Both the position numbers and the translations under genes were made by a program. 31,141 bases of DNA from Calothrix sp. NIES-2100 (GTDB lineage: Bacteria > Cyanobacteriota > Cyanobacteriia > Cyanobacteriales > Nostocaceae), in contig AP018178.1 of assembly GCA_002368195.1 (NCBI GenBank), positions 5,050,145 to 5,081,285 on the forward strand, read 5' to 3'. Positions 12,585 through 23,915 of this stretch are shown here, piece after piece (position 1 is the first letter of the stretch; every line of letters starts with the position of its first letter). The notes beneath the pieces were generated by a model that saw nothing but the letters and a program-made list of their open reading frames with translations, searched no databases and had not been told where the DNA came from.

Positions 12585-12944
12585 ATGCAACTAGAAGATT
12601 ACTTTGATTTTCAGCGTCCTGATGACATTCGACTCAAAGGTACAAGAGTAGGAATTGAAACTATTCTTTATGAATACATCTATCGTGCCCGAACGCCAGA
12701 AGAGATTGCCAACATTTATACTTCATTAACATTAGAACAAGTTTACGCCACTATTCTTTATTACCTGCATAACAAAGAAGCTGTCAGCAATTATATAGCT
12801 GATTGGTTAGAGTGGAGTCATAAAATGCAGGAAGAACAAAGACGTAATCCTCCACCAGTTGTTGCCAAGCTGATAAAATTCAAAGCTGAAAGAGAAGCCA
12901 TGAAAAAAGCAAAGGACAATGACTCTCAAATATCTGCTGGATGA
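12585..12944 (+). CDS. DUF433-family protein (putative antitoxin-like partner)
   Basis: GTRVGIETILYEY....TPEEIANIY..LTLEQVYATILYY matches the DUF433 signature. It overlaps the next gene by 26 nt. Confidence 0.75.
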   Translation: MQLEDYFDFQRPDDIRLKGTRVGIETILYEYIYRARTPEEIANIYTSLTLEQVYATILYYLHNKEAVSNYIADWLEWSHKMQEEQRRNPPPVVAKLIKFKAEREAMKKAKDNDSQISAG

Positions 12945-13284
12945 AAATGTTGCTCCTCTGTTTCAAGTTCAACTCAGACGACAAAAACGTGATTTGGTTG
13001 TTTGGGCGGTGGGAGAACCTGCTACTCCTCCTAAAAGCACACTAGATCCAGAAATATTATGCTGGTGTGAGAAACACAACTTTATTTTAGTTACAAATAA
13101 TCGTAAATCCATGCCTGTACATTTGGCTGAACATATCGCCCTTGGGCAGAATGTACCAGGTATTTTTATTTTGAATGATAAATTAACTATTGGTCAAAAT
13201 ATTGATGAATTAATTATCATTGCTGAAGCCTCTTTTGATGATGAATATCAAAACCAAATAGTGCATTTACCATTGCTTCAGTAA
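12919..13284 (+). CDS. DUF5615-family (PIN-like) protein, the usual partner of DUF433
   Basis: MTLKYLLDENV...ILVTNN resembles the DUF5615 N-terminus (MKFLxDENL). The overlapping arrangement is typical of DUF433/DUF5615 pairs. Confidence 0.7.
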   Translation: MTLKYLLDENVAPLFQVQLRRQKRDLVVWAVGEPATPPKSTLDPEILCWCEKHNFILVTNNRKSMPVHLAEHIALGQNVPGIFILNDKLTIGQNIDELIIIAEASFDDEYQNQIVHLPLLQ

Positions 13285-13361
13285 AATCAAAGCTAAATCC
13301 GCAATCCGCGATCGCTTCTGGATATTTTACCTCAGATACGGGGATGACTTACTGTGGTAAC

Positions 13362-13512
13362 CACAAGGTACGCTGTGGTCACTACAAGGTACGCTGTGGT
13401 CACTACAAGGTACGATGTGGTCACCACAAGGTACGATGTGGTCACTACAAGGTACGATGTGGTCACCACAAGGTACGCTGTGGTCACCACAAGGTACGCT
13501 GTGGTAACCACA
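13362..13512. repeat. Second 21-bp tandem repeat with about 7 copies (unit CTGTGGTCACYACAAGGTACG)
   Basis: Direct inspection. The unit differs from the 1990-2289 array. Each unit can form a small CCACA...TGTGG hairpin. Confidence 0.9.
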
Positions 13513-13805: not shown

Positions 13806-16040
13806 ATGGTATCTACTTCTACACCGTTCTCGGATATTAAAAACCATTGGGCACGCTTATTTATTGAAGCTTTATCAGGGTGTCGCGTTTTAAATGGGTA
13901 TCCAAACGGAACTTTTCGCCCAGATAACTCAGTAACTCGTGCGGAATTTGCTGCCATCATTGGCGCAGTCTTTACAGTACCGCCAAAACGGCAATATGTC
14001 GCTTTTACTGATGTCCCTACTAACCATTGGGCTTTTAGTGCTATACAAAAATCTTATGAAACAGGATTTATTAGTGGCTATCCCAATCGCACTTTCCTTC
14101 CTAATAATAGAATTTCCCGGGGCGATGTTTTTGTTGCCATAGTCAACGGCTTGGATATTGCTACTAAAATCAAACCTGACTTGGTAAATAAACTGCCGCA
14201 ATTATATCAAGATGCAACTGCGATCGCCGCCTATGCCAAAAATCAAGTAGCCATTGCTACGAGTACCGGGTTAGTAGCTAGCTATCCAAATATCAAATTT
14301 CTCAACCCCAATATCGCCGCCACTCGTGCAGATGTGGCAGTAATAGTTTATCAAGCTTTAGTCTATCTGGGGCGAGTAGACAAAATTACCTCAGCTTACT
14401 TAGTAATTCCACCCACGCCCACGCCCACACCAACGCCCACACCAACACCAAGCACCACGCCAACGCCCACACCCACGCCAACGCCAATACCCATTCCCAC
14501 ACCCACGCCAACGCCAATACCAACACCCACGCCAACGCCAATACCCATTCCCATACCTACGCCAACGCCAACCCCGACACCCACGCCAACGCCAATACCC
14601 ATTCCCATACCTACGCCAACGCCAACCCCGACACCTACCCCAGTACCATCAAATACAATCAGGGTAAATCATCAACGAGAGTTTCGCGGCGCTTGGGTAG
14701 CGTCAGTATGGAATAGTGATTGGCCTTCTAAAGCTGGACTACCTGTAGCGCAACAAAAATCAGAATTACTGGCGATTATCACCAAATTACAGCAGCTCAA
14801 TTTTAATGCGCTGATTTTGCAGGTGCGACCAGAAGGGGATGCGTTGTATGCTTCATCTTTAGAACCGTGGAGTGCTTGGTTGACAGGAACCCAGGGGAAA
14901 GCACCAGATCCATTTTATGACCCCTTAGAGTATGCGATCGCAGAATGCCACAAACGTAATATAGAACTTCATGCTTGGTTCAATCCCTATCGCGCTAAGA
15001 CTTCGATTCAGCAAGGGTCGAATGTCATTCCCCACATAGCTGTAACTAATCCCCAAGTTGTTTATAAATGGGGTAATCAGTTGTGGATGGACCCAGGATT
15101 AGAAATTGTTCAAGATAGGGCTTATAACGTAATTCTCGATGTTGTCCGCCGTTATGACATCGATGGCGTTCACTTAGATGATTATTTTTATCCCTACCCC
15201 ATCACAGGTCAAAGTTTCCCCGATAGTAAAACCTACGCAACGTATAAAGAAGCCGGTGGCGGACTCAGCTTGGCTGACTGGCGCAGAGAAAACGTCAATC
15301 TGATGGTACTGCGTCTGGCTGAGGGAATTAAAGCCGCCAAGACCCATGTTAAATTTGGCATCAGTCCCTTCGGTATTTACAGACCCGGACAACCGCCAGG
15401 AATTACCGGCTTAGATGCCTATGATGTCCTCTATGCCGACTCGAAAAAATGGCTAGAACAAGGTTGGATTGATTACATCGCCCCTCAACTCTACTGGCGT
15501 ACCGACCAAACACAACAAAGTTATCCTGCCTTACTCAAATGGTGGACACAGGTAAACACTAAGCAAAAACACGTTTACGCTGGTAACAATTTAACAGAAC
15601 CAAGTAACAAGAGTCGGGAGAGTGAAGAGATTGAAAAGCAGGTAATAATTAGCCGTAGCCAAACTGGACAGTTTTCATTAGGGAACATCTTCTTTAATGT
15701 GGGCGTTTTAATGGAAAACAGTCAAGGCATTGCGGATAAATTCCAAAGTCTGCTTTATAAAAAGCCTGCCTTACCGCCAATTTTGCCTTGGCATGATACC
15801 ACACCACCAGCACCCCCCACCGCCTTGCAATATGTTAACGGTAAACTCAATTGGCAACCTGGTGATAATCAACCAGTTCGTTCTTGGGCGCTTTATCGAC
15901 AAGTTGGGGATAATTGGGAAATTCAGCGACTTTTATCGGCTGGGACAAACTTTGCCACTGTGGGGCCAGGTATCTATGCAGTTTCCGCAGTTAATAGATT
16001 AGGGAGTGAGAGTTTAGGAGTGGTGATTACTGTTAGTTGA
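13806..16040 (+). CDS. S-layer-homology (SLH) domain protein: N-terminal SLH repeats, a long Pro-Thr linker, and a C-terminal GHL10/DUF187 (YngK-like) glycoside-hydrolase-like domain
   Basis: SLH motifs (F.D....HWA...I......G...GYP.G.F.P....TRAE) occur three times. The (TP/IP)n linker lies at about aa 200-280. The C-terminal [13 protein letters not shown]...[17 protein letters not shown] is the DUF187 signature. Confidence 0.8.
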
Positions 16041-16196
16041 TGGTTGACAGTTGTATTTACAAATCGCAAATGTAGGGGCACAACGGCAGTTCATACGTGT
16101 CAACTTAACGTGAAACTCTCTGTGTGACAAAGTTTTGCCCTCATCCCCTAACCCCTTCTCCCTCAGGAGAAGGGGAATTCCCTCACCCCCACCCTT

Positions 16197-16859
16197 CTAG
16201 GGTGAAAGCATAACCTTGTCATTATACGGGTTTGAATTTTTGAATGCTTCTGCCTTTTCGTAAGCACGAATTGTTGCCGGACGTGCCTTAATTGTCTCAA
16301 ACCAACGCTTTAAATTCGGAAAATCTTCTAAGTTTTGACTTTGACGTTTATAAGGCACAATCCAGGGATAAGCAGCAATATCAGCAATGGAATAATCGCC
16401 AGCTACAAATTCTCTATCTGCCAATCTTTTATCTAACACTCCATACAAGCGTCCTGTTTCTTTGACGTAGCGGTTGATAGCATAGTCAATTTTTTCTGGT
16501 GCGTATTCGCTAAAGTGGTGGTTCTGACCAGCCATTGGCCCTAAACCTGCCATTTGCCAGAATAGCCATTGTAAAACCTCTAGGCGCGCATCTTGAGGAA
16601 TTAACTTCCCAGTTTTTTCTGCTAAATACAGCAGAATAGCACCAGATTCAAAAATAGCAATTGGCTCACCTCCATTTACAGGTTCATGGTCAACAATTGC
16701 CGGAATACGATTGTTAGGAGAAACCTTGAGAAAATCCGGATTGAATTGCTCACCAGCCATAATATTTACTGGAATAATATTGTAAAGAAGTCTAACTTCT
16801 TCCAAGAAAATTGTGATTTTATTACCGTTTGGTGTTGGCCAATAATAAAGGTCAATCAT
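16197..16859 (-). CDS. Nu-class glutathione S-transferase (YfcG/YghU-like), copy 1
   Basis: MIDLYYWPTPNGNKITIFLEE...ISPNNRIPAIVDHEP..GGEPIAIFESGAILLYLAEKTGK resembles E. coli YfcG closely. Confidence 0.9.
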   Translation of the reverse strand: MIDLYYWPTPNGNKITIFLEEVRLLYNIIPVNIMAGEQFNPDFLKVSPNNRIPAIVDHEPVNGGEPIAIFESGAILLYLAEKTGKLIPQDARLEVLQWLFWQMAGLGPMAGQNHHFSEYAPEKIDYAINRYVKETGRLYGVLDKRLADREFVAGDYSIADIAAYPWIVPYKRQSQNLEDFPNLKRWFETIKARPATIRAYEKAEAFKNSNPYNDKVMLSP

Positions 16860-17392
16860 GGGTTATTCTCCCGAATTTTTGTGATTGTTTTGAGAACTTA
16901 GACTTCTTTTGCTGCTAGTAGTCCACCACAATAATTTCTTAGTCAGCGCTTCAGTCCTTATTTCCAGGACACTGCTGACTAGGTATCTGTAAATAATTAA
17001 TGACATAAACCACTAGCCAATGTTGTTGATGAATGCGATGATTTAGCGATCGCACCCCAAACTCTATGGTGAACTGGGAAAATCGGTGTCGGATATTTTT
17101 CTGGCAATTTTGATTATTCTAGGAGTCACACACCCACTTATGATGCGCTTTTCTACTAGTTGCATGGTTGTACTGTAGATATCGACTCTTGGTCATATAT
17201 TAAACACCAGCACTTGTAAGTACATGAAACCTTAACATTACCGCAAAATTTTGCTGATATTTGCGTATATATTAACTATTTTAGTATTTTACCGTATTTT
17301 CACTCAGGCGATCGCTTCGCTTTCGTCAAAAGTCAAAATTAATAAATATTTACTTTTGACTTTTGACTGAAGCGAAGGGTTTAAGAGCTAGC

Positions 17393-17812
17393 CGCCATGA
17401 TAAGGTACAAACTTTGCCCCTGTGGGGACAGGAACCTATGCTGTATCCGCAGTTAACAGGTTAGCAAGTGAGAGTTTATACCGTTTAACTTTAATTATGA
17501 TACAAATACATTGGTAGGGAACAATGCCCATTGGTGTCAACTTAACCTGAAACCCGCTTGGTGAAAAGGTTTCGCCCTCACCCCCAGCCCCTCTCCCCTG
17601 GGGAGAGGGGAGCTAGAAATCCAATTCCCCAACTCCGGTGGGGAGAAGGGGTTAGGGGATGAGGGCGTGGGAATTTGTACAACGCTTGCCCGATATAGCT
17701 TTCGGCTTAAGTTGACACGTATGGGCAATGCCGTGCCCCCGACGCGAAATCTATATGTATCAGCGTTTTAGTGAAATGGTATTAGGAGTGGTGATTACAG
17801 TCAGTTAATGAT
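17393..17812. pseudogene. Decayed duplicate of the 3' end of the SLH/GHL10 gene, interrupted by a MITE
   Basis: 17393-17478 resembles 15946-16031 (...CAAACTTTGCC.CTGTGGGG.CAGG.A.CTATGC.GT.TCCGCAGTTAA.AG.TTAG..AGTGAGAGTTTA). 17785-17812 resembles 16032-16045 and onward (GGAGTGGTGATTAC.G). Confidence 0.6.
17479..17784. mobile_element. MITE insertion of about 306 bp with a TGTCAACTTAA-type TIR core at 17526-17726, inside the duplicated gene fragment
   Basis: Comparison with the intact parental 3' end places the insertion between ...AGTGAGAGTTTA and GGAGTGGTGATTA. TTA is present at both junctions and may be a TSD. The TIRs are GCCCATTGGTGTCAACTTAA / TTAAGTTGACACGTATGGGC. Confidence 0.6.
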
Positions 17813-18164
17813 TGATGTCGCTTGTACATCTTCGTGTGATTGTATTGATAACACGGGGATTGTTTGACATTGCAGCCATAGGTGTTAAGTATGAACGATG
17901 TCCAGCGGTGCAATCGCACTATTAGGCATCTTAATTTACAGCGAAACTAGGGGTAGTTCAGAGTCGTAGATATAAACGATACACCGTTTTCCTCCCAGGA
18001 CGCTGCATTCAAAAACCACTCAGACTATCAAAACATAATGGGAGCGTGAGAACCCCTGCCTTTACATGAGGGGATGAAACGCGACTCAACAGGATTTATC
18101 CTGTTTGCTTTATTAATAGAGAAAGGCTGCCGCTGAAACTAGTCAAGCGGCAATTTGGATTTAC

Positions 18165-18863
18165 CTAACGTTGAATAGTCTGCGCAGATTGATTAAATAA
18201 TAAATCCCGTGACTTTTCAATATCTAATGCCTGATTTTTAAACTCTTCTGCCTTTTCGTAAGCGCGAATTGTTGCCGGACGTGCCTTAATTGCCTCAAAC
18301 CAACGCTTTAAATTCGGAAAATCTTCTAAGTTTTGGCTTTGGCGTTCATAAGGCACAATCCAGGGATAAGCAGCAATATCAGCAATGGAATAATCGCCAG
18401 CTACAAATTCTCTATCTGCCAATCTTTTGTCTAACACTGCATACAAGCGTCCTGTTTCTTTGACGTAGCGGTTGATAGCATAGTCAATTTTTTCTGGTGC
18501 GTATTGGCTAAAGTGGTGGTTCTGTCCCGCCATTGGCCCTAAACCTCCCATTTGCCAAAATAACCATTGTAAAACTTCAACACGTTTGGGCAAATCTTGG
18601 GGAATTAACTTCCCAGTTTTTTCTGCTAAATACAGCAGAATTGCACCCGATTCAAAAACAGAAATCGGCGCACCGCCATTTGCAGGTTCATTGTCAACAA
18701 TTGCCGGGATACGATTGTTAGGTGAAATATTGAGAAACTCTGGCTTAAATTGGTCGCCAGCACCAATATTTACCGGAATAATATTGTAAGGAAGTCCAAC
18801 TTCTTCCAAGAAAATTGTAATTTTATGACCGTTGGGAGTTGTCCAATAATAAAGGTCAATCAT
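18165..18863 (-). CDS. Nu-class glutathione S-transferase (YfcG-like), copy 2 and paralog of 16197-16859
   Basis: The start is taken at the internal ATG (MIDLYYWTTPNGH...), which has a GGAGA RBS, rather than at the ORF-track start 10 codons upstream. Roughly 95% nt identity to copy 1 over the 3' half. Confidence 0.85.
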   Translation of the reverse strand: MIDLYYWTTPNGHKITIFLEEVGLPYNIIPVNIGAGDQFKPEFLNISPNNRIPAIVDNEPANGGAPISVFESGAILLYLAEKTGKLIPQDLPKRVEVLQWLFWQMGGLGPMAGQNHHFSQYAPEKIDYAINRYVKETGRLYAVLDKRLADREFVAGDYSIADIAAYPWIVPYERQSQNLEDFPNLKRWFEAIKARPATIRAYEKAEEFKNQALDIEKSRDLLFNQSAQTIQR

Positions 18864-18894
18864 GGTGATTTCTCCTGATTTGTCAATAGTCAAT

Positions 18895-18958
18895 AGTCAG
18901 TTGTCAGTTGTAAAAAAGGCGAACAGTCAACCGTCAACCGTCAACCGTCAACAGTCCC
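18895..18958. repeat. STRR heptamer block (CAATAGT / CAGTTGT / CAACCGT units)
   Basis: Visible 7-nt periodicity. Confidence 0.8.
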
Positions 18959-18966
18959 CTCATCTT

Positions 18967-19656
18967 TTAAAAACGCTCAACCCAAGGGCGCAATTCTACT
19001 TCCCAAGTCCAAGCGCTGCGGGGTTGATTTAAAATGCTGAGATAAGTTTGAGCGATCGCATCCGGATCGAGAGTACTATCAGGGTTATCGGCTGGATCTT
19101 GGCGTTGGGCGGAACGAATAGCACCATCAATTACAAAATGCGCTACATGAATATTCTTAGGTGCTAATTCCCTCGCAATGCTTTGAGCCAAACCCCTGAG
19201 GGCAAATTTACCCATTGCAAACGGTGCAGATTGCGGATAACCCTTAACACTAGCTGAGGCTCCGGTAAAAAATATCGCCCCACCTCCCTGCTGTAACATC
19301 CTTTTAGCGGCAGCCTGGGCAACCAAAAAGCCACCATAGGCAGTGATTTCTAGGGTTTTGGCAACTTCGCTGGGGTCTAGTTCAATTAGCGGCCCCCGGA
19401 CTCGAAAACTGGGATTGTAAACAACAACTGTCGGGTTACCAAGTTTATTTTCGACATCGATAAATAACTGGTTTACCTCCTCTGGTTTTGCCGCATCAGC
19501 AGCGAAGCTAACCGCACCGATTTCACTACTAAGCTGAGTCAGTTTCTCAATGCTACGAGATGCTAAGGCTATTTTCAGTCCTTCCTTGGCAAATAAGCGA
19601 GCGATAGAAGCACTTAATCCATTACCTGCTCCAACTATCAAAGCTGTTTTTGGCAT
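18967..19656 (-). CDS. Short-chain dehydrogenase/reductase (SDR)
   Basis: N-terminal MPKTALIVGAGNGLSASIARLFAKEG Rossmann motif. Length is 229 aa. Confidence 0.85.
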   Translation of the reverse strand: MPKTALIVGAGNGLSASIARLFAKEGLKIALASRSIEKLTQLSSEIGAVSFAADAAKPEEVNQLFIDVENKLGNPTVVVYNPSFRVRGPLIELDPSEVAKTLEITAYGGFLVAQAAAKRMLQQGGGAIFFTGASASVKGYPQSAPFAMGKFALRGLAQSIARELAPKNIHVAHFVIDGAIRSAQRQDPADNPDSTLDPDAIAQTYLSILNQPRSAWTWEVELRPWVERF

Positions 19657-19679: not shown

Positions 19680-20978
19680 CTAGGGATTAATTGTGGCTGA
19701 AGATAAAAGTGAATTACTCTTAGTAGGATTTTGACCAATTCGCAGTACTAAGACTGCTGCTATTAAGCACAAAACACCTGACAAAATAAATGCTTGAACA
19801 TAAGTACCTTGCCAAGTTCTCAGCGCTCCGGCTCCGAAGGCGGCTGTAGCTGCACCGAGTTGATGTCCGGCGACAATCCAGCCGAACATAACGCCGACAT
19901 TCTCTTTGCCGAAGACGTTGGCTACAAGGCGAACTGTCGGCGGTACAGTAGCAATCCAGTCGAGTCCGTAAAAGACGGCAAAGATTGAGAGTCCGTAGAA
20001 TGAGAAGTGAAAACTGAAGGGTAGGAAAATTAGGGATAAACCCCGCAATCCGTAGTACCAGCAGAGTAAGTAGCGATTGTTCCACCTATCAGACAGCCAA
20101 CCGGAGAGAGTTGTCCCAAAAAAATCAAAGATGCCCATAATCGCTAACAGTCCCGCAGCCTTAACTTCAGGGATGCCATGATCAATGCAGGCGGGAATTA
20201 GATGAGTGCCGATAAGTCCGTTAGTACTCGCACCACAGATAAAAAAACTACTAAATAACAACCAAAAGTCACGAGATTTGCAGCCCTGCCAGAGTTTGCT
20301 GAGTGTGGAAGTGATGGAATTTGCCTTTGGCGGTATTAATTCCACAGTTTCGCTATTATCTCCAAAAGCTCGCAAGCCAACTTCCACTGGCCGATCGCGC
20401 ATGAATAAGGCGATCGCCGGAATCACTAAAACTGCAACGCCAGCCAGGGCTAAAGTAGCTGTTCGCCATCCAAATCTCTCCACTATCGACGCCAACATGG
20501 GCAGAAATACTAATTGCCCGGTAGCTGTACTGGCGGTAAGCATCCCCAGAACCAAACCCCGCCGCTCTACAAACCAGCGATTGACAACAACCGCACCTAA
20601 TACTAAGGCGATAACTCCGCTACCACTACCGACAATGATTCCCCACAGCAATACTAACTGCCAGGAAGCTGACATGAAAGTGGTCAAGCCAACGCCAATA
20701 GCGATGAAAGCCAATGCGAATACCATTGTCCGGCGAATACCGATGCGCTCCATGACAGTGGCGGCAAAAGGGCCGATCAATCCATACAGTACTAAGTTGA
20801 TGGAGATTGCTAAGGATATAGTAGCTCTACTCCAGCCAAACTCCTGCTCCAAAGGCACGATGAGAACTCCTGGTGCAGAACGAATCCCGGCGGCTACTAA
20901 TAGAGCTAAAAATGTTAAACCCGCTACGAGCCAGCCATAATGAAGCGAACGACGTGCTAAAAACGAGGCTAAGGACAT
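19680..20978 (-). CDS. MFS transporter
   Basis: 432 aa with about 12 hydrophobic segments and an MFS-like D-R-x-G-R-R region (MERIGIRRT). The stop is 23 nt upstream of the SDR start. Confidence 0.8.
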   Translation of the reverse strand: MSLASFLARRSLHYGWLVAGLTFLALLVAAGIRSAPGVLIVPLEQEFGWSRATISLAISINLVLYGLIGPFAATVMERIGIRRTMVFALAFIAIGVGLTTFMSASWQLVLLWGIIVGSGSGVIALVLGAVVVNRWFVERRGLVLGMLTASTATGQLVFLPMLASIVERFGWRTATLALAGVAVLVIPAIALFMRDRPVEVGLRAFGDNSETVELIPPKANSITSTLSKLWQGCKSRDFWLLFSSFFICGASTNGLIGTHLIPACIDHGIPEVKAAGLLAIMGIFDFFGTTLSGWLSDRWNNRYLLCWYYGLRGLSLIFLPFSFHFSFYGLSIFAVFYGLDWIATVPPTVRLVANVFGKENVGVMFGWIVAGHQLGAATAAFGAGALRTWQGTYVQAFILSGVLCLIAAVLVLRIGQNPTKSNSLLSSATINP

Positions 20979-21080: not shown

Positions 21081-21746
21081 TTACCCCTGATAAGGGTTAC
21101 CAATTCTATCTACAGAAACGTTAGCAGACAAAGGCAAGCGACCGGGATTGAGGCGGGGTTCTGCGGGATAACCAACAGGTACTAAAACTGCGATCGCTAA
21201 ATCTGGATCGTCTGCTGCACCAATCACAGCCTTCACTTGCTCTTCAATCCAACCATTCATAAAGCAGGTGGATAAACCTAAACTTTCGGCTGCAAGTACT
21301 AAATGAGTAGCCGCAATGATTGCATCTTTGATCCCATATTCGCGCCGCTTGTCTGCTAAACCAGCTTGAAATTGGGGTATAGCATTTTTAAAGTAGTTGA
21401 CTGTACCTTCATTCCATGCCCCAGTTTGCAGTGCTTGCTCATAAACCGGTGTTAAGTCTTTTTCTCCCGCATAGGGATCGGCTGCAAATACAAATGTCAC
21501 AGGTGCTTGGACAATTTGTTGTTGATTCCAAGATGCTGCTGACAATGCTGCTTTTTGCGCTTCATCTTGCACCAGGATAATTTGCCAACCTTGCATATTA
21601 AAACTGCTAGGTGCGGCTACGGTTAACTCTACTAGTTGCTTGAGTATTTCCTCTGGTATAGGGTCTGATTTGAAAGTTTTAATGGAACGACGCTGAAGAA
21701 TAGCACTGGGTACATCTAAGACTTGAGTTTGTGCGATCGCACTCAT
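21081..21746 (-). CDS. Nitroreductase-family protein
   Basis: LQRRSIKTFKSDPIP...matches the nitroreductase N-terminal signature. Length is 221 aa. Confidence 0.85.
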   Translation of the reverse strand: MSAIAQTQVLDVPSAILQRRSIKTFKSDPIPEEILKQLVELTVAAPSSFNMQGWQIILVQDEAQKAALSAASWNQQQIVQAPVTFVFAADPYAGEKDLTPVYEQALQTGAWNEGTVNYFKNAIPQFQAGLADKRREYGIKDAIIAATHLVLAAESLGLSTCFMNGWIEEQVKAVIGAADDPDLAIAVLVPVGYPAEPRLNPGRLPLSANVSVDRIGNPYQG

Positions 21747-21851: not shown

Positions 21852-22964
21852 TTATAGACTGACTACTTGTTCCCCAGCAGCCGACCAAAACGGATAGTCT
21901 GTATATCCCTGTTCACCACCACCATAGAAGCTTTCTTGATTTGGCTGATTCAACGGTGCATTTAAAGCCAAGCGTCGGGGTAAATCTGGATTTGCGATAA
22001 ATAGAGTGCCAAAGGCGACTAAATCGGCTTCTTTGTTAGCTAAAACAGCATTGCCCGTTTCATTTGTATAGCCACCACAAACAATCAGTGTACCTGTATA
22101 CCTTTCCCGTAAATAATCGGTTGGTACTGCCGTCCCACCATGCCTGATATCTGCGTCTGTGGACTCAATAATATGCAGATAAGCTAAATTAAATTGATTC
22201 AGTACTTGCGCAGTGTAACCAAAGGTTTCTAAAGGATTAGAGTCACGCATATCGTTAAATGTCCCGCTAGGCGAAAGCCTAACTCCTACCCGTTTACTAT
22301 CCCAAACGCTAGTAACTGCTTCTACAATGTCTAATAAAAATCGCACACGGTTCTCAATACTACCGCCATACTTATCTGTCCGTTGATTCGTACCATCCCG
22401 GAGAAACTGGTCAATTAAATAACCATTAGCTCCGTGAATTTCTATGCCATCAAACCCAGCCGCTAGAGCATTGACTGCCCCTTGACGGTATTGTTCCACA
22501 ATATCTGGAATCTCGGAAGTTTCCAAAGCGCGGGGAGTAACATAAGGTTTGAATCCCTCGAATGTGAATGCTTGACCTTGCGGTGTAATTGCCGAAGGTG
22601 CTACAGGTAAAGCCCCATCTGGTAGCAAGTCAGGGTGAGAAATTCTGCCTACGTGCCACAGTTGCAGAAATATTTTTCCTCCCTGCTGATGCACAGCATC
22701 GGTTACCAACTTCCAACCCGCCACCTGTTCTGGTGAATGAATACCTGGTGTATTCGGATACCCCAGTCCTTGAGGAGAAACTTGAGTTGCTTCTGCAATA
22801 ATTAGTCCAGCCGAAGCGCGTTGCTCATAGTATGTAGCATTGAGCGAATTGGGTACATTTCCCTGACCTGCTCTTTGCCTAGTTAGGGGAGCCATAACTA
22901 TCCGATTGGGTAGTTCTAAATCACCTAATTGGTAAGGAGAGAACAAGTTGATATTAGTATTCAT
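21852..22964 (-). CDS. Old Yellow Enzyme family NADH:flavin oxidoreductase (NemA/OYE-like alkene reductase)
   Basis: LGDLELPNRIVMAPLTR.RA...EATQVSPQG.GYP.TPGI.S.EQ...WK.V.DAVH..GG.IFLQLWH.GR, with a C-terminal GYTDYP region. Length is 370 aa. Confidence 0.9.
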   Translation of the reverse strand: MNTNINLFSPYQLGDLELPNRIVMAPLTRQRAGQGNVPNSLNATYYEQRASAGLIIAEATQVSPQGLGYPNTPGIHSPEQVAGWKLVTDAVHQQGGKIFLQLWHVGRISHPDLLPDGALPVAPSAITPQGQAFTFEGFKPYVTPRALETSEIPDIVEQYRQGAVNALAAGFDGIEIHGANGYLIDQFLRDGTNQRTDKYGGSIENRVRFLLDIVEAVTSVWDSKRVGVRLSPSGTFNDMRDSNPLETFGYTAQVLNQFNLAYLHIIESTDADIRHGGTAVPTDYLRERYTGTLIVCGGYTNETGNAVLANKEADLVAFGTLFIANPDLPRRLALNAPLNQPNQESFYGGGEQGYTDYPFWSAAGEQVVSL

Positions 22965-23157: not shown

Positions 23158-23484
23158 TTAAGAAATATGCTGTGCTAAAGTCTTAGCTAAAGTGGTTTTG
23201 GGCACGGCACCCACGACCGTATCGACTTGTCGGCCTCCCTTAAATACCATTAACGTGGGAATGCTCCGAATACCATAATGGCTGGCGACGGTGGGATTTT
23301 GATCTGTGTTCAGTTTCACTACTTTCACCTGGCCGTCGTATTCGGTAGCTACCTCATCGACAACCGGAGCCACCATTCTGCAAGGGCCACACCAAGGTGC
23401 CCAAAAGTCAACTAGGACTGGAACTTGGCTTTCAAGGACTTCTTGCTTAAATGTAGCTTCTGTGACATTTGTAACGGATGACAT
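23158..23484 (-). CDS. trx: Thioredoxin
   Basis: WCGPC active site. 108 aa, typical of TrxA-like proteins. An AGGAGG RBS sits 6 nt upstream of the ATG on the minus strand. Confidence 0.9.
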
Positions 23485-23564: not shown

Positions 23565-23915
23565 ATGAGATTTTTGTATCATCCAGACCGAAAAGATATA
23601 TCGTTAGCGGGAGTGCTATATGCCTTAGGCGATCCGGTAAGGCTAGAAATTGTGCGGCTTTTAGCAACGAAGGGAGAGCAATGCTGTGCGGGGTTTGATT
23701 TTGCGATCGCCAAATCAACCATGTCCAATCATTTTAAGATTTTACGGGAGTCAGGCGTAGTACTGACTCATAAAGAAGGAACACAGCACATCAACCAATT
23801 GCGGCGAGAAGATTTAGAAGCCCTATTCCCTGGATTATTAGATGCAGTCTTACAATCAGCCCAACCATTAAATATTTGTGTTTCGGCTGATAAGCAAACA
23901 GCTTCAAAAGTTTAG
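23565..23915 (+). CDS. ArsR/SmtB-family HTH transcriptional regulator with a Cys-Cys pair in the predicted alpha3 helix
   Basis: LGDPVRLEIVRLLA..GEQCCAGF......STMSNHFKILRESGVV aligns with the ArsR alpha1-alpha4 layout. The CC sits where ArsR carries its C-x-C sensing site. Confidence 0.75.
   Translation: MRFLYHPDRKDISLAGVLYALGDPVRLEIVRLLATKGEQCCAGFDFAIAKSTMSNHFKILRESGVVLTHKEGTQHINQLRREDLEALFPGLLDAVLQSAQPLNICVSADKQTASKV

Follow-up and report, generated by a model that had tools for sequence, protein, structure and literature searches.

The YfcG protein of Escherichia coli and other Nu-class glutathione S-transferases (GSTs) are described as glutathione-dependent disulfide-bond oxidoreductases (Wadington et al., 2009, as cited in PMC3995644), and the active-site set of the Nu-like structure 4IKH comprises Thr28, Gln57, Glu89, Ser90, and Arg152 (PMC3995644). 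The locus analyzed here is a 31,141-nt stretch of the chromosome of Calothrix sp. NIES-2100 (AP018178.1, positions 5,050,145–5,081,285; assembly GCA_002368195.1), referred to as the window, which carries two YfcG-like GST genes, GST1 and GST2; positions are window coordinates unless a locus label precedes them. Among bacterial paralogs that exchange sequence, tufA and tufB are the classic case. Gene conversion and concerted evolution between bacterial paralogs have been described (Wang and Chen, 2018; PMC6053082), and the MITEs (miniature inverted-repeat transposable elements) of cyanobacteria include Nezha (130–170 bp), the Anabaena MITEs of about 224 bp, and the Microcystis MITEs, besides which GTAG-tagged repetitive extragenic palindromic (REP) sequences are known (PMC3184786, PMC3733652). 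In the window, GST2 was found to be the conserved last gene of a gene cluster and GST1 a member of a separate, older lineage of shorter enzymes; a stretch of GST1 appears to have been overwritten later with GST2 sequence. The account that we regard as likely for the whole locus combines old, diverged GST paralogs, a tandem duplication in place, a later partial conversion, and a MITE insertion. The two genes are:

16197–16859, minus strand: GST1, a 220-residue "short-type" YfcG-like GST, 100% identical to a NIES-2100 protein
16197–16235, minus strand: short-type-specific 3′ end of GST1 (…SNPYNDKVMLSP, then the stop codon), which replaces the conserved 22-residue tail of the long type
18165–18863, minus strand: GST2, a 232-residue "long-type" YfcG-like GST, identical to the NIES-2100 protein P0017

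Both copies showed the two-domain GST fold, with Pfam matches to GST_N (2e-12 and 8e-14) and GST_C (4e-10). The closest solved structures over residues 1–204/206 were 4L8E, 3GX0, and 5HFK (E = 1e-76 to 1e-86), with YghU (3C8E) weaker at 2e-48; YfcG itself (3GX0) was matched over its full length by GST1 (E = 8e-77) and GST2 (E = 7e-80). NCBIfam PRK13972 was the best family by far, at 268.0 bits for GST1 and 279.7 bits for GST2. Since both scores fall under the equivalog cut-off of 332 bits, the proteins are YfcG-like rather than certified equivalogs. T9, Q38, and E71–S72 are identical to YfcG in GST1 and GST2, and both arginines of the NRY…GRLY motif, to which Arg152 of 4IKH would correspond, are kept; judged by alignment, the five conserved Nu-class active-site residues appear intact in both copies, and GST2 can be assigned as a YfcG-like GST of the glutathione-dependent disulfide-bond oxidoreductase type. 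A preliminary description of this DNA had placed both genes among the YfcG-type Nu-class enzymes, in agreement with the 3GX0 and 5HFK matches and with PRK13972. It had also taken the N-terminal domain as the substrate-binding one, which is mistaken: in GSTs this is the thioredoxin-like, glutathione-binding domain.

GST2 lies at the end of a minus-strand cluster that reads divergently from a regulator gene:

23565–23915: ArsR-family regulator
23158–23484, minus strand: thioredoxin
21852–22964, minus strand: OYE/NEM-reductase-like protein
21081–21746, minus strand: nitroreductase (NTR)
19680–20978, minus strand: MFS transporter
18967–19656, minus strand: SDR
18864–18966, minus strand: GST2–SDR intergenic region, short, with heptamer repeats and without a methyltransferase relic

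More than 30 cyanobacterial loci (one genome per species) were found to carry a single GST of 230–235 residues adjoining the SDR, MFS, NTR, and OYE genes, and two had a form of about 210 residues. The synteny matched in more than 20 Nostocales loci. GST2 shares 95% amino-acid identity with the single GST of Nostoc sp. 106C (locus L001), where the order is SLH–2.5 kb–GST–SDR–MFS–NTR–OYE. The order in the operon locus of Calothrix NIES-2098 (L086) is MFS–SDR–methyltransferase–GST. In both genomes, an ortholog of the SLH and GHL10 (glycosyl-hydrolase-like 10) gene of the window lies downstream of the long GST; in NIES-2098 it stands further off, past a cupin gene and a transposase. Since relatives carry one GST at the cluster end, GST2 is the ancestral operon member and GST1 the extra gene, and GST2 is the conserved last gene of an ArsR-controlled redox/electrophile-stress cluster.

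Two side observations concern the same operon position. An uncultured Scytonema metagenome-assembled genome carries two tandem long-type GSTs after the SDR gene (L010 8460–9155 and 10001–10696; 78% and 86% identical to GST2), apparently an independent duplication. Directly after the SDR stop codon in the window, five AACCGTC heptamers (18922–18956), similar to short tandemly repeated repetitive (STRR) sequences, fold into a hairpin with a T-run after it on the minus strand, and this tract is shorter in the metagenome locus L084.

GST1 is one of a group of short proteins of 220–222 residues that share the tail SNPxxDKVxLSP together with N13 and M34, and the 220-residue members also share a 2-codon deletion. 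Such proteins were found in NIES-2098 and in Mojavia pulchra, at two different loci unrelated to this one, and in four metagenome contigs; NIES-2098 and Mojavia carry the long type in the operon as well. In alignments, the short-type tail was seen in L081, L082, L084, L092, L093, and L094; the metagenome genes of L084, L092, and L093 are called m84, m92, and m93. The JGI identifiers are 3300083097 for L092, 3300081879 for L084/L085, and 3300081567 for L093. Neighbor-joining trees, built from 130–350 sites, grouped all seven short types as monophyletic over codons 1–117 with a bootstrap of 100. Over the 5′ part, the synonymous divergence (dS) between GST1 and GST2 is 0.365, a level seen between species (0.425 for GST2 and 106C). 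The short types also evolve about three-fold faster at the protein level, with an omega of 0.2–0.4 compared to 0.05–0.11 for the long types, and GST1 itself has a dN/dS of 0.2–0.3. With 106C as the outgroup, 17 unique amino-acid changes were counted in GST1 and two in GST2 (p = 0.0007). Because omega is well under 1, GST1 is maintained under purifying selection. GST1 is therefore a gene of a separate, older short lineage, and not a fresh copy of GST2.

The positions of the other short-type genes bear on how this lineage has moved. The relevant features are:

L081 9864–10746 and L082 9863–10746: 884-bp short-GST cassette
L084 2099–2260 and L093, whole contig: fused short-type GST loci

The cassette consists of 137 bp of upstream sequence, the short GST, and 83 bp with a hairpin, and it is 94% identical between NIES-2098 and Mojavia in unrelated neighborhoods. 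The long genes of these two genomes are far more diverged, with a dS of about 0.65–0.7 (taking the short-versus-long pair of each genome as a proxy) and third-position differences of 25–42%, which implies horizontal transfer of the short gene. In L084/L085 and L093, the short gene stands directly behind GST2-type upstream sequence, the region 18864–18966 being homologous by blastn to the upstream of the short genes in L084 and L093; in L084 the shared sequence reaches a remnant of the SDR 3′ end. In the L084 gene, roughly the first eight codons resemble GST2 (ACA at codon 8), with short-type sequence thereafter, and no SDR or MFS gene separates the nitroreductase from the GST at that locus. 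This structure of L084 and L093 looks like the product expected when recombination within a tandem GST2–GST1 pair deletes the interval with the long copy. Such fusions imply that both genes once coexisted, and hence that the tandem state is older than the NIES-2100 strain.

A second line of evidence comes from the uneven divergence along the two genes. Their 3′ block (16236–16580 and 18234–18578) is 95.1% identical (328/345) and their 5′ block (16586–16861 and 18590–18865) 88.0% (243/276), as the preliminary description had estimated for the 3′ half. Divergence is accordingly not uniform along the gene, with a maximum chi-square breakpoint at nt 333 (permutation p = 0.007). Third positions differ by 22.5% in the 5′ part and 6.2% in the 3′ part, a ratio of 0.27 that lies outside the 0.59–2.33 of 91 ortholog pairs, and dS falls from 0.365 to 0.110. 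The conversion tract is:

16299–16428, minus strand: core gene-conversion tract, long type copied into short (outer limits 16247–16507)

The tract was delimited with m92, the closest relative of GST1 in the 5′ region, where the two share P8, R23, L25, N40, and E65 (bootstrap 74). In the triplet of GST1, m92, and GST2, 18 consecutive informative sites from 16428 to 16299 are GST2-like (permutation p <= 5e-6). Per 130 nt of tract, GST1 differs from m84 at two positions, from GST2 at three, from 106C at seven, from the NIES-2098 short gene at 15, and from m92 at 21; expressed as percentages, the other, unconverted short-type genes are 11–16% from GST1 and GST2 is 2.3%. The same is seen in the proteins, which read IVLYQRQKQNIEDF in m92, IVPYKRQSQNLEDF in GST1, and IVPYERQSQNLEDF in GST2. 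The protein P0002, closest to GST1 in the 5′ region, retains short-type residues (…IVLYQRQKQNIEDF…) where GST1 is GST2-like. Over codons 118–204, support for short-type monophyly drops to 7%, while GST1, m84, m93, and GST2 group at 69% and the unconverted short types at 88%.

These comparisons support a conversion between GST1 and GST2 that covered 130 nt or more, up to about 260 nt (16247–16507). The direction is from long to short, since the converted states are those of long-type orthologs, and GST2 emerges from the alignments as the donor, being the nearest long type (3/130, compared to 7/130 for 106C). The remainder of the 95% identical half outside the tract is simply a very conserved segment. 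Only one exclusive shared-derived site was found between GST1 and GST2, so the case for conversion relies on donor-like states rather than on new shared mutations. Calls of diagnostic sites made with only NIES-2098 and Mojavia as short references were dropped, as changes on their shared branch mimic conversion, and were replaced by the trees and the m92 triplet. The process was apparently episodic. The earlier proposal that ongoing gene conversion produced the mosaic is supported as to recombination between the paralogs, and "ongoing" goes further than the comparisons show: the best tract covers about 130 nt, not the whole 3′ half, and has already accumulated three differences.

The remaining evidence lies in the DNA around the two genes, in which the following were identified:

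13806–16040, plus strand: SLH and GHL10 gene, convergent with the GST genes (Pfam GHL10 3.6e-69, SLH 6.2e-31)
15942–16047, plus strand: repeat copy A, comprising the final 33 codons of the live SLH/GHL10 gene and 7 nt, found by repeat search and alignment
17404–17478, plus strand: repeat copy B, part 1, a dead SLH/GHL10 3′-end relic of 25 codons with stop codons before it, 88% to the 106C ortholog
17785–17815, plus strand: repeat copy B, part 2, the last seven codons and stop of the SLH relic (TAA at 17806–17808) and 7 nt
17816–18164, no strand: ancestral SLH–GST spacer kept by copy B, with matches to the 106C spacer ends at 17811–17871 and 18106–18141 (blastn, 80% and 94%)
16860–17403, minus strand: upstream region of GST1, shared by blastn with short-type loci up to 16985–17032 and with L092 at 17242–17350
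17030–17107, minus strand: relic of a class-I methyltransferase (last 26 codons), 77% over 26 residues to the L086 methyltransferase (blastx, E = 4.6e-10)

Two adjacent direct copies are present, each with the SLH end followed by the GST on matching strands. The SLH ends are 85% identical over 15942–16016 and 17404–17478 and 88% over 16014–16047 and 17782–17815. When 17479–17784 is removed, the second SLH end becomes an in-frame 32-codon relic preceded by stop codons. The relic, the live end, and the 106C end are about equidistant, with 13–16 differences per 99 nt counted by eye, which implies a duplication about as old as those species splits. The preliminary description had held that the SLH end, a spacer, and the GST each appear twice. 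This is correct for the last 106 nt or so of the SLH gene and for the GST, but not for the spacers (16041–16196 and 17808–18164), which are non-homologous apart from a MITE-like fragment. Its two fragments of the second SLH end, at 17393–17478 and from 17785 on, were likewise recovered, with the homology beginning at 17404 rather than 17393. Homology between the GSTs ends at 16236/18234, beyond which the two genes finish in unrelated sequence, 12 codons in GST1 and 22 in GST2. Upstream, the likeness of the two copies is limited to about 22–27 nt beside the ATG.

The methyltransferase relic is collinear with the ATG-proximal 26 nt of GST1, and the match to the operon of NIES-2098 that covers it reaches 84% (blastn, 17020–17108 and L086 9795–9883). 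No methyltransferase homology beyond the last 26 codons was detected in 17108–17403. Neither the duplication junction (GATAAGGTACAAACTTTGCC) nor a relic free of the insertion (GAGAGTTTAGGAGTGGTGATTAC) turned up in metagenome scans. As a separate observation, 3′ relics of a class-I SAM-methyltransferase gene also occur upstream of the GST in several Nostocales (L001 9848–9877, L004/L005 9742–9804, and L016 950–1013), and the gene is intact between SDR and GST in NIES-2098 (L086 9106–9876); it seems to have decayed repeatedly within this operon.

Mobile or palindromic sequences occupy much of the space between and beside the two genes:

17479–17784, no strand: nested MITE insertion of 306 bp, i.e., 303 bp and the duplicated TTA at 17782–17784
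16065–16193, no strand: truncated MITE-like element of the inner-element family between the SLH and GST1 stop codons, with one arm and a central G-rich hairpin
17315–17377, no strand: strong palindrome with a near-perfect stem of about 22 bp between the SLH relic and the upstream region of GST1

The insertion had been recognized in the preliminary description as a MITE of roughly 306 bp that splits the SLH fragment with TTA at both junctions, and this was confirmed by its TACC…GGTA ends and by comparison with empty sites. TTA flanks it at 17476–17478 and 17782–17784, its inverted repeat is 31 nt long (84%), and it is non-coding, with only a spurious 63-residue open reading frame (ORF). The empty site (…GAGAGTTTAGGAG…) is seen in copy 1, and the SLH ends of Nostoc 106C and NIES-2098 are likewise uninterrupted. 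The insertion consists of one element inside another: an outer element of about 100 bp and an inner element of about 218 bp at 17522–17739. The outer element also occurs by itself, as a 104-bp copy between two TTA triplets, on a plasmid of Nostoc UHCC 0926 (L090 356–459), and the inner element is 87% identical to copies on three Fremyella/Tolypothrix plasmids. The 3-bp TTA duplication presumably resembles IS5-family or Harbinger-type insertions, a resemblance that we take only as a lead. The truncated element next to GST1 has a 26-nt, 100% complementary inverted repeat and matches the insertion by blastn (16097–16174 and 17534–17610, 78%; 16137–16179 and 17623–17666, 89%). Homology to the short-type loci of other genomes stops at 16191–16194.

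The palindrome at 17315–17377 contains AAAGTCA-type heptamers and has a predicted RNA fold of -32.8 kcal/mol (z = -5.4). Palindromes like it were also seen in L020 and L024, and it is within this palindrome that the metagenome contig L092 breaks off. The motif GGGGCACGGCA, the core of a GTAG-tagged REP-like palindrome, occurs five times at <=1 mismatch compared to 0.24 expected, with sites at 2594–2616, 1815–1825, 17729–17739, and 23199–23209; it also forms the center of the outer MITE and is present downstream of the GST in L084.

In the account that we consider likely, GST2 is the conserved operon enzyme and GST1 belongs to the older short lineage, with its tail lost and two codons deleted. 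The short lineage was most likely born here by tandem duplication of a block of about 1.5–2 kb, which would have begun with the final 106 nt of SLH/GHL10 and extended across the spacer, the GST, and the intergenic region to the 3′ end of the upstream methyltransferase. The dead SLH end (17404–17815) and the 26-codon methyltransferase relic (17030–17107) would be the scars of this event. The short gene may later have spread to other genomes as a small cassette. Non-reciprocal recombination then copied at least 130 nt of GST2 into GST1, giving the mosaic identity. A nested MITE entered a TTA of the dead SLH end, and a MITE-like piece replaced the DNA just 3′ of GST1. Under the same account, the methyltransferase relic must have been lost upstream of GST2, leaving just 85 bp that contain heptamer repeats, and GST1 must have acquired a new tail and new downstream DNA.

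Several observations weigh against this account. The spacers of the two copies, and their upstream regions beyond about 25 nt, are non-homologous, so that a tandem duplication needs later deletions or replacements. As 17109–17403 matches nothing identifiable, the head-to-tail junction is unreadable. The relic and the live SLH end share a few derived bases (GTG, AGT, GGAGTGGTG), which suggests that the duplication postdates the divergence from 106C and NIES-2098; a duplication that late would require either horizontal spread of the short gene into NIES-2098 or conversion between the SLH ends. The tree placements are also in conflict: the sister of GST1 is m92 in the tree of the 5′ region (74%) and m84 in that of the 3′ region (82%). 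The GST1 and m84 tracts differ at only 2/130 although their genomes differ by 14–17% at third positions. A single ancestral conversion as the whole story was rejected on this ground, since the tract identity of GST1 and m84 conflicts with the 5′ affinity of GST1 and m92. The tract, with its three differences from GST2, is carried by m84 and m93 and is missing from m92, a reticulate pattern among strains.

The strongest competitor, which we judge unlikely, is that the short gene was born elsewhere and was brought beside GST2 by transfer or recombination, for example through integration assisted by SLH-end homology, with conversion following. The short gene evidently moves, as the cassette in unrelated contexts demonstrates, the short genes of NIES-2100 and NIES-2098 are closer (dS 0.23) than the long genes (0.39–0.64), and neither the spacers nor the upstream regions match between the two copies. 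Yet the 78-nt methyltransferase relic is collinear with the operon order of methyltransferase to GST and is the longest among the short-type loci, the NIES-2098 cassette keeping only about 13 nt; a duplicated SLH end is what a local tandem duplication predicts; and the spacer with 106C-like ends was retained by copy B and not by copy A. Still less credible is a recent segmental duplication within this strain, in which identical GSTs diverged while ongoing conversion kept their 3′ halves alike, the simple duplication in this genome that was originally envisaged. The SLH end and GST do form direct repeats in one order, single GSTs stand at this position in Nostoc 106C and in more than 30 other loci, and a few derived bases are common to the SLH relic and the live end. 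However, the 5′ region of GST1 groups with the short types of other genomes, sharing their deletion and tail, the dS of the unconverted part is as large as that between species, the short type already resides at other loci in NIES-2098 and Mojavia, and both the three differences in the tract and the unconverted state of its close relative m92 mark the conversion as episodic. The short-type clade thus largely refutes a recent origin.

Two further alternatives would remove recombination or the second copy altogether, and we give both very little credence. Constraint on the 3′ part, by selection on the protein or at the codon level, could account for the high conservation of codons 112–144 in all comparisons and for ortholog pairs that are less diverged in their 3′ halves, such as GST2 and 106C (third positions 15.5% compared to 22.1%); against it stand the third-position ratio outside the range of the ortholog pairs, the change of tree topology between regions, and the run of GST2-like sites in a tract where the other short types are far from GST1, of which the last two refute it. 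An expanded or chimeric repeat in the assembly, the artefact named in the preliminary description as a possible refutation, has even less to recommend it. Nothing specific speaks for it beyond the general tendency of palindromes and MITEs to break assemblies, as in the L092 contig that ends within the 17315–17377 palindrome. The 5′ parts of the copies are about 12% apart and their tails and flanks are not alike, both genes stand on the 9.9-Mb chromosome record and both proteins are recorded for NIES-2100, the same GST1, along with the same far-upstream sequence, was recovered in a metagenome contig of independent origin (L092), and the fusion of GST2-type upstream to a short gene in L084 and L093 requires that both genes co-existed.

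A bolder extension of the tandem-duplication account, which we put forward only tentatively and hold to be rather doubtful, is that the window is the birthplace of the whole 220-residue short-type subfamily. The subfamily would have arisen here with the duplication scars, lost its tail, diversified its glutathione-binding domain, spread among Nostocales as a cassette of about 0.9 kb while continuing to exchange sequence with its parent, and replaced that parent in L084 and L093. If true, the locus would be a complete, traceable record of how a bacterial enzyme paralog was born, diverged, was exported, and replaced its parent.

With regard to expression, GST2 would probably be transcribed with the operon or just after it and GST1 from its own upstream region. 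A conserved terminator-like hairpin follows GST2 at 18106–18141 (-21.9 kcal/mol, z = -3.1), and this hairpin, the palindrome with its 22-bp stem, and the MITE all lie between the genes, which makes a separate upstream region for GST1 probable. A terminator-like hairpin was also observed in the GST2–SDR intergenic region (18864–18966). The promoter scan, with seven sites compared to 6.8 expected, was uninformative on GST1 transcription. Selection for dosage, one of the two motives suggested at first for keeping two copies, is unlikely given the strongly asymmetric evolution of the pair (17 and two unique changes); from its pattern of substitution, GST1 is probably a diversifying second enzyme.

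The surroundings of the locus include further features. At 12585–13284, a DUF433 gene overlaps with a DUF5615 gene, a combination commonly labeled toxin–antitoxin-like; the two lie between an SMC-like ATPase gene and the SLH gene, and the order is kept in Nostoc 106C and NIES-2098. A tandem repeat with a 21-nt unit (CTGTGGTCACCACAAGGTACG; 7.7 copies, 94% matches) occupies 13352–13512 in the intergenic DNA upstream of the SLH/GHL10 gene and gives spurious ORFs on both strands. The SLH/GHL10 protein has a linker rich in Pro, Thr, and Ile (TPTPTPIP…), encoded at 14412–14642 by degenerate repeats of 6, 24, 30, and 54 nt; its N-terminal 280 or so residues, including the linker, are unconserved relative to the 106C and NIES-2098 orthologs, and tblastn matches begin at residue 280. 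An Rfam search of 15500–19500 returned only sub-threshold hairpin matches to miRNA models, which are meaningless here.

Taken as a pair, the two GSTs represent an operon enzyme that is conserved and a short paralog that evolves fast and moves horizontally, and they should be annotated and studied as two enzymes, not as redundant copies. The locus provides a compact, internally dated case of partial conversion for which a donor is known, together with a relative that lacks the conversion and recombinant-deletion derivatives. A comparison of long, short, and chimeric proteins could reveal the roles of the cyanobacteria-specific 22-residue tail and of the variable N-terminal surface. The family itself is well known, and public protein records for NIES-2100 already exist for both genes. 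To our knowledge, the short-type lineage and its history are undescribed, no literature search having been aimed at the lineage. Current understanding is not challenged by the locus, and the history of the short type is unsurprising: this is ordinary gene-family evolution by duplication, asymmetric divergence, partial conversion, and MITE insertion, unusually well documented here.

Compared to the known systems, both GST proteins share with YfcG a full-length alignment (E of about 1e-77 to 1e-80), the two-domain fold, and the active-site residues Thr9, Gln38, Glu71–Ser72, and Arg. The long type adds a 22-residue tail, which cyanobacteria conserve and YfcG lacks, the short type ends instead in a 12-residue tail of its own, and both remain under the equivalog cut-off, with the likeness known here from sequence. 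The insertion resembles the cyanobacterial MITEs in being small and non-coding, in its terminal inverted repeats and short target duplication (TTA), in the observation of both empty and filled sites, and in having copies in other Nostocales replicons. Its center carries a GTAGGGGCACGGCA…-type palindrome; it differs in being nested, and it is likened to Nezha and the other named families by description rather than by sequence.

As in known cases of conversion between paralogs, there is a tract in which paralogs of one genome resemble one another more than they do their orthologs, and the trees of tract and flanks are incongruent. The GST pair, however, was converted over only about 130–260 of 660 nt and episodically, while the rest diverges fast and asymmetrically. 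With tandem segmental duplication followed by asymmetric divergence, the locus has in common its direct repeats, a truncated copy of a flanking gene at each end, and one fast and one conserved daughter. It departs from that pattern in that the junction and spacers have been rewritten, the fast daughter has spread as a cassette, and in two metagenome strains (L084 and L093) the conserved copy has been replaced by the fast daughter through recombination.

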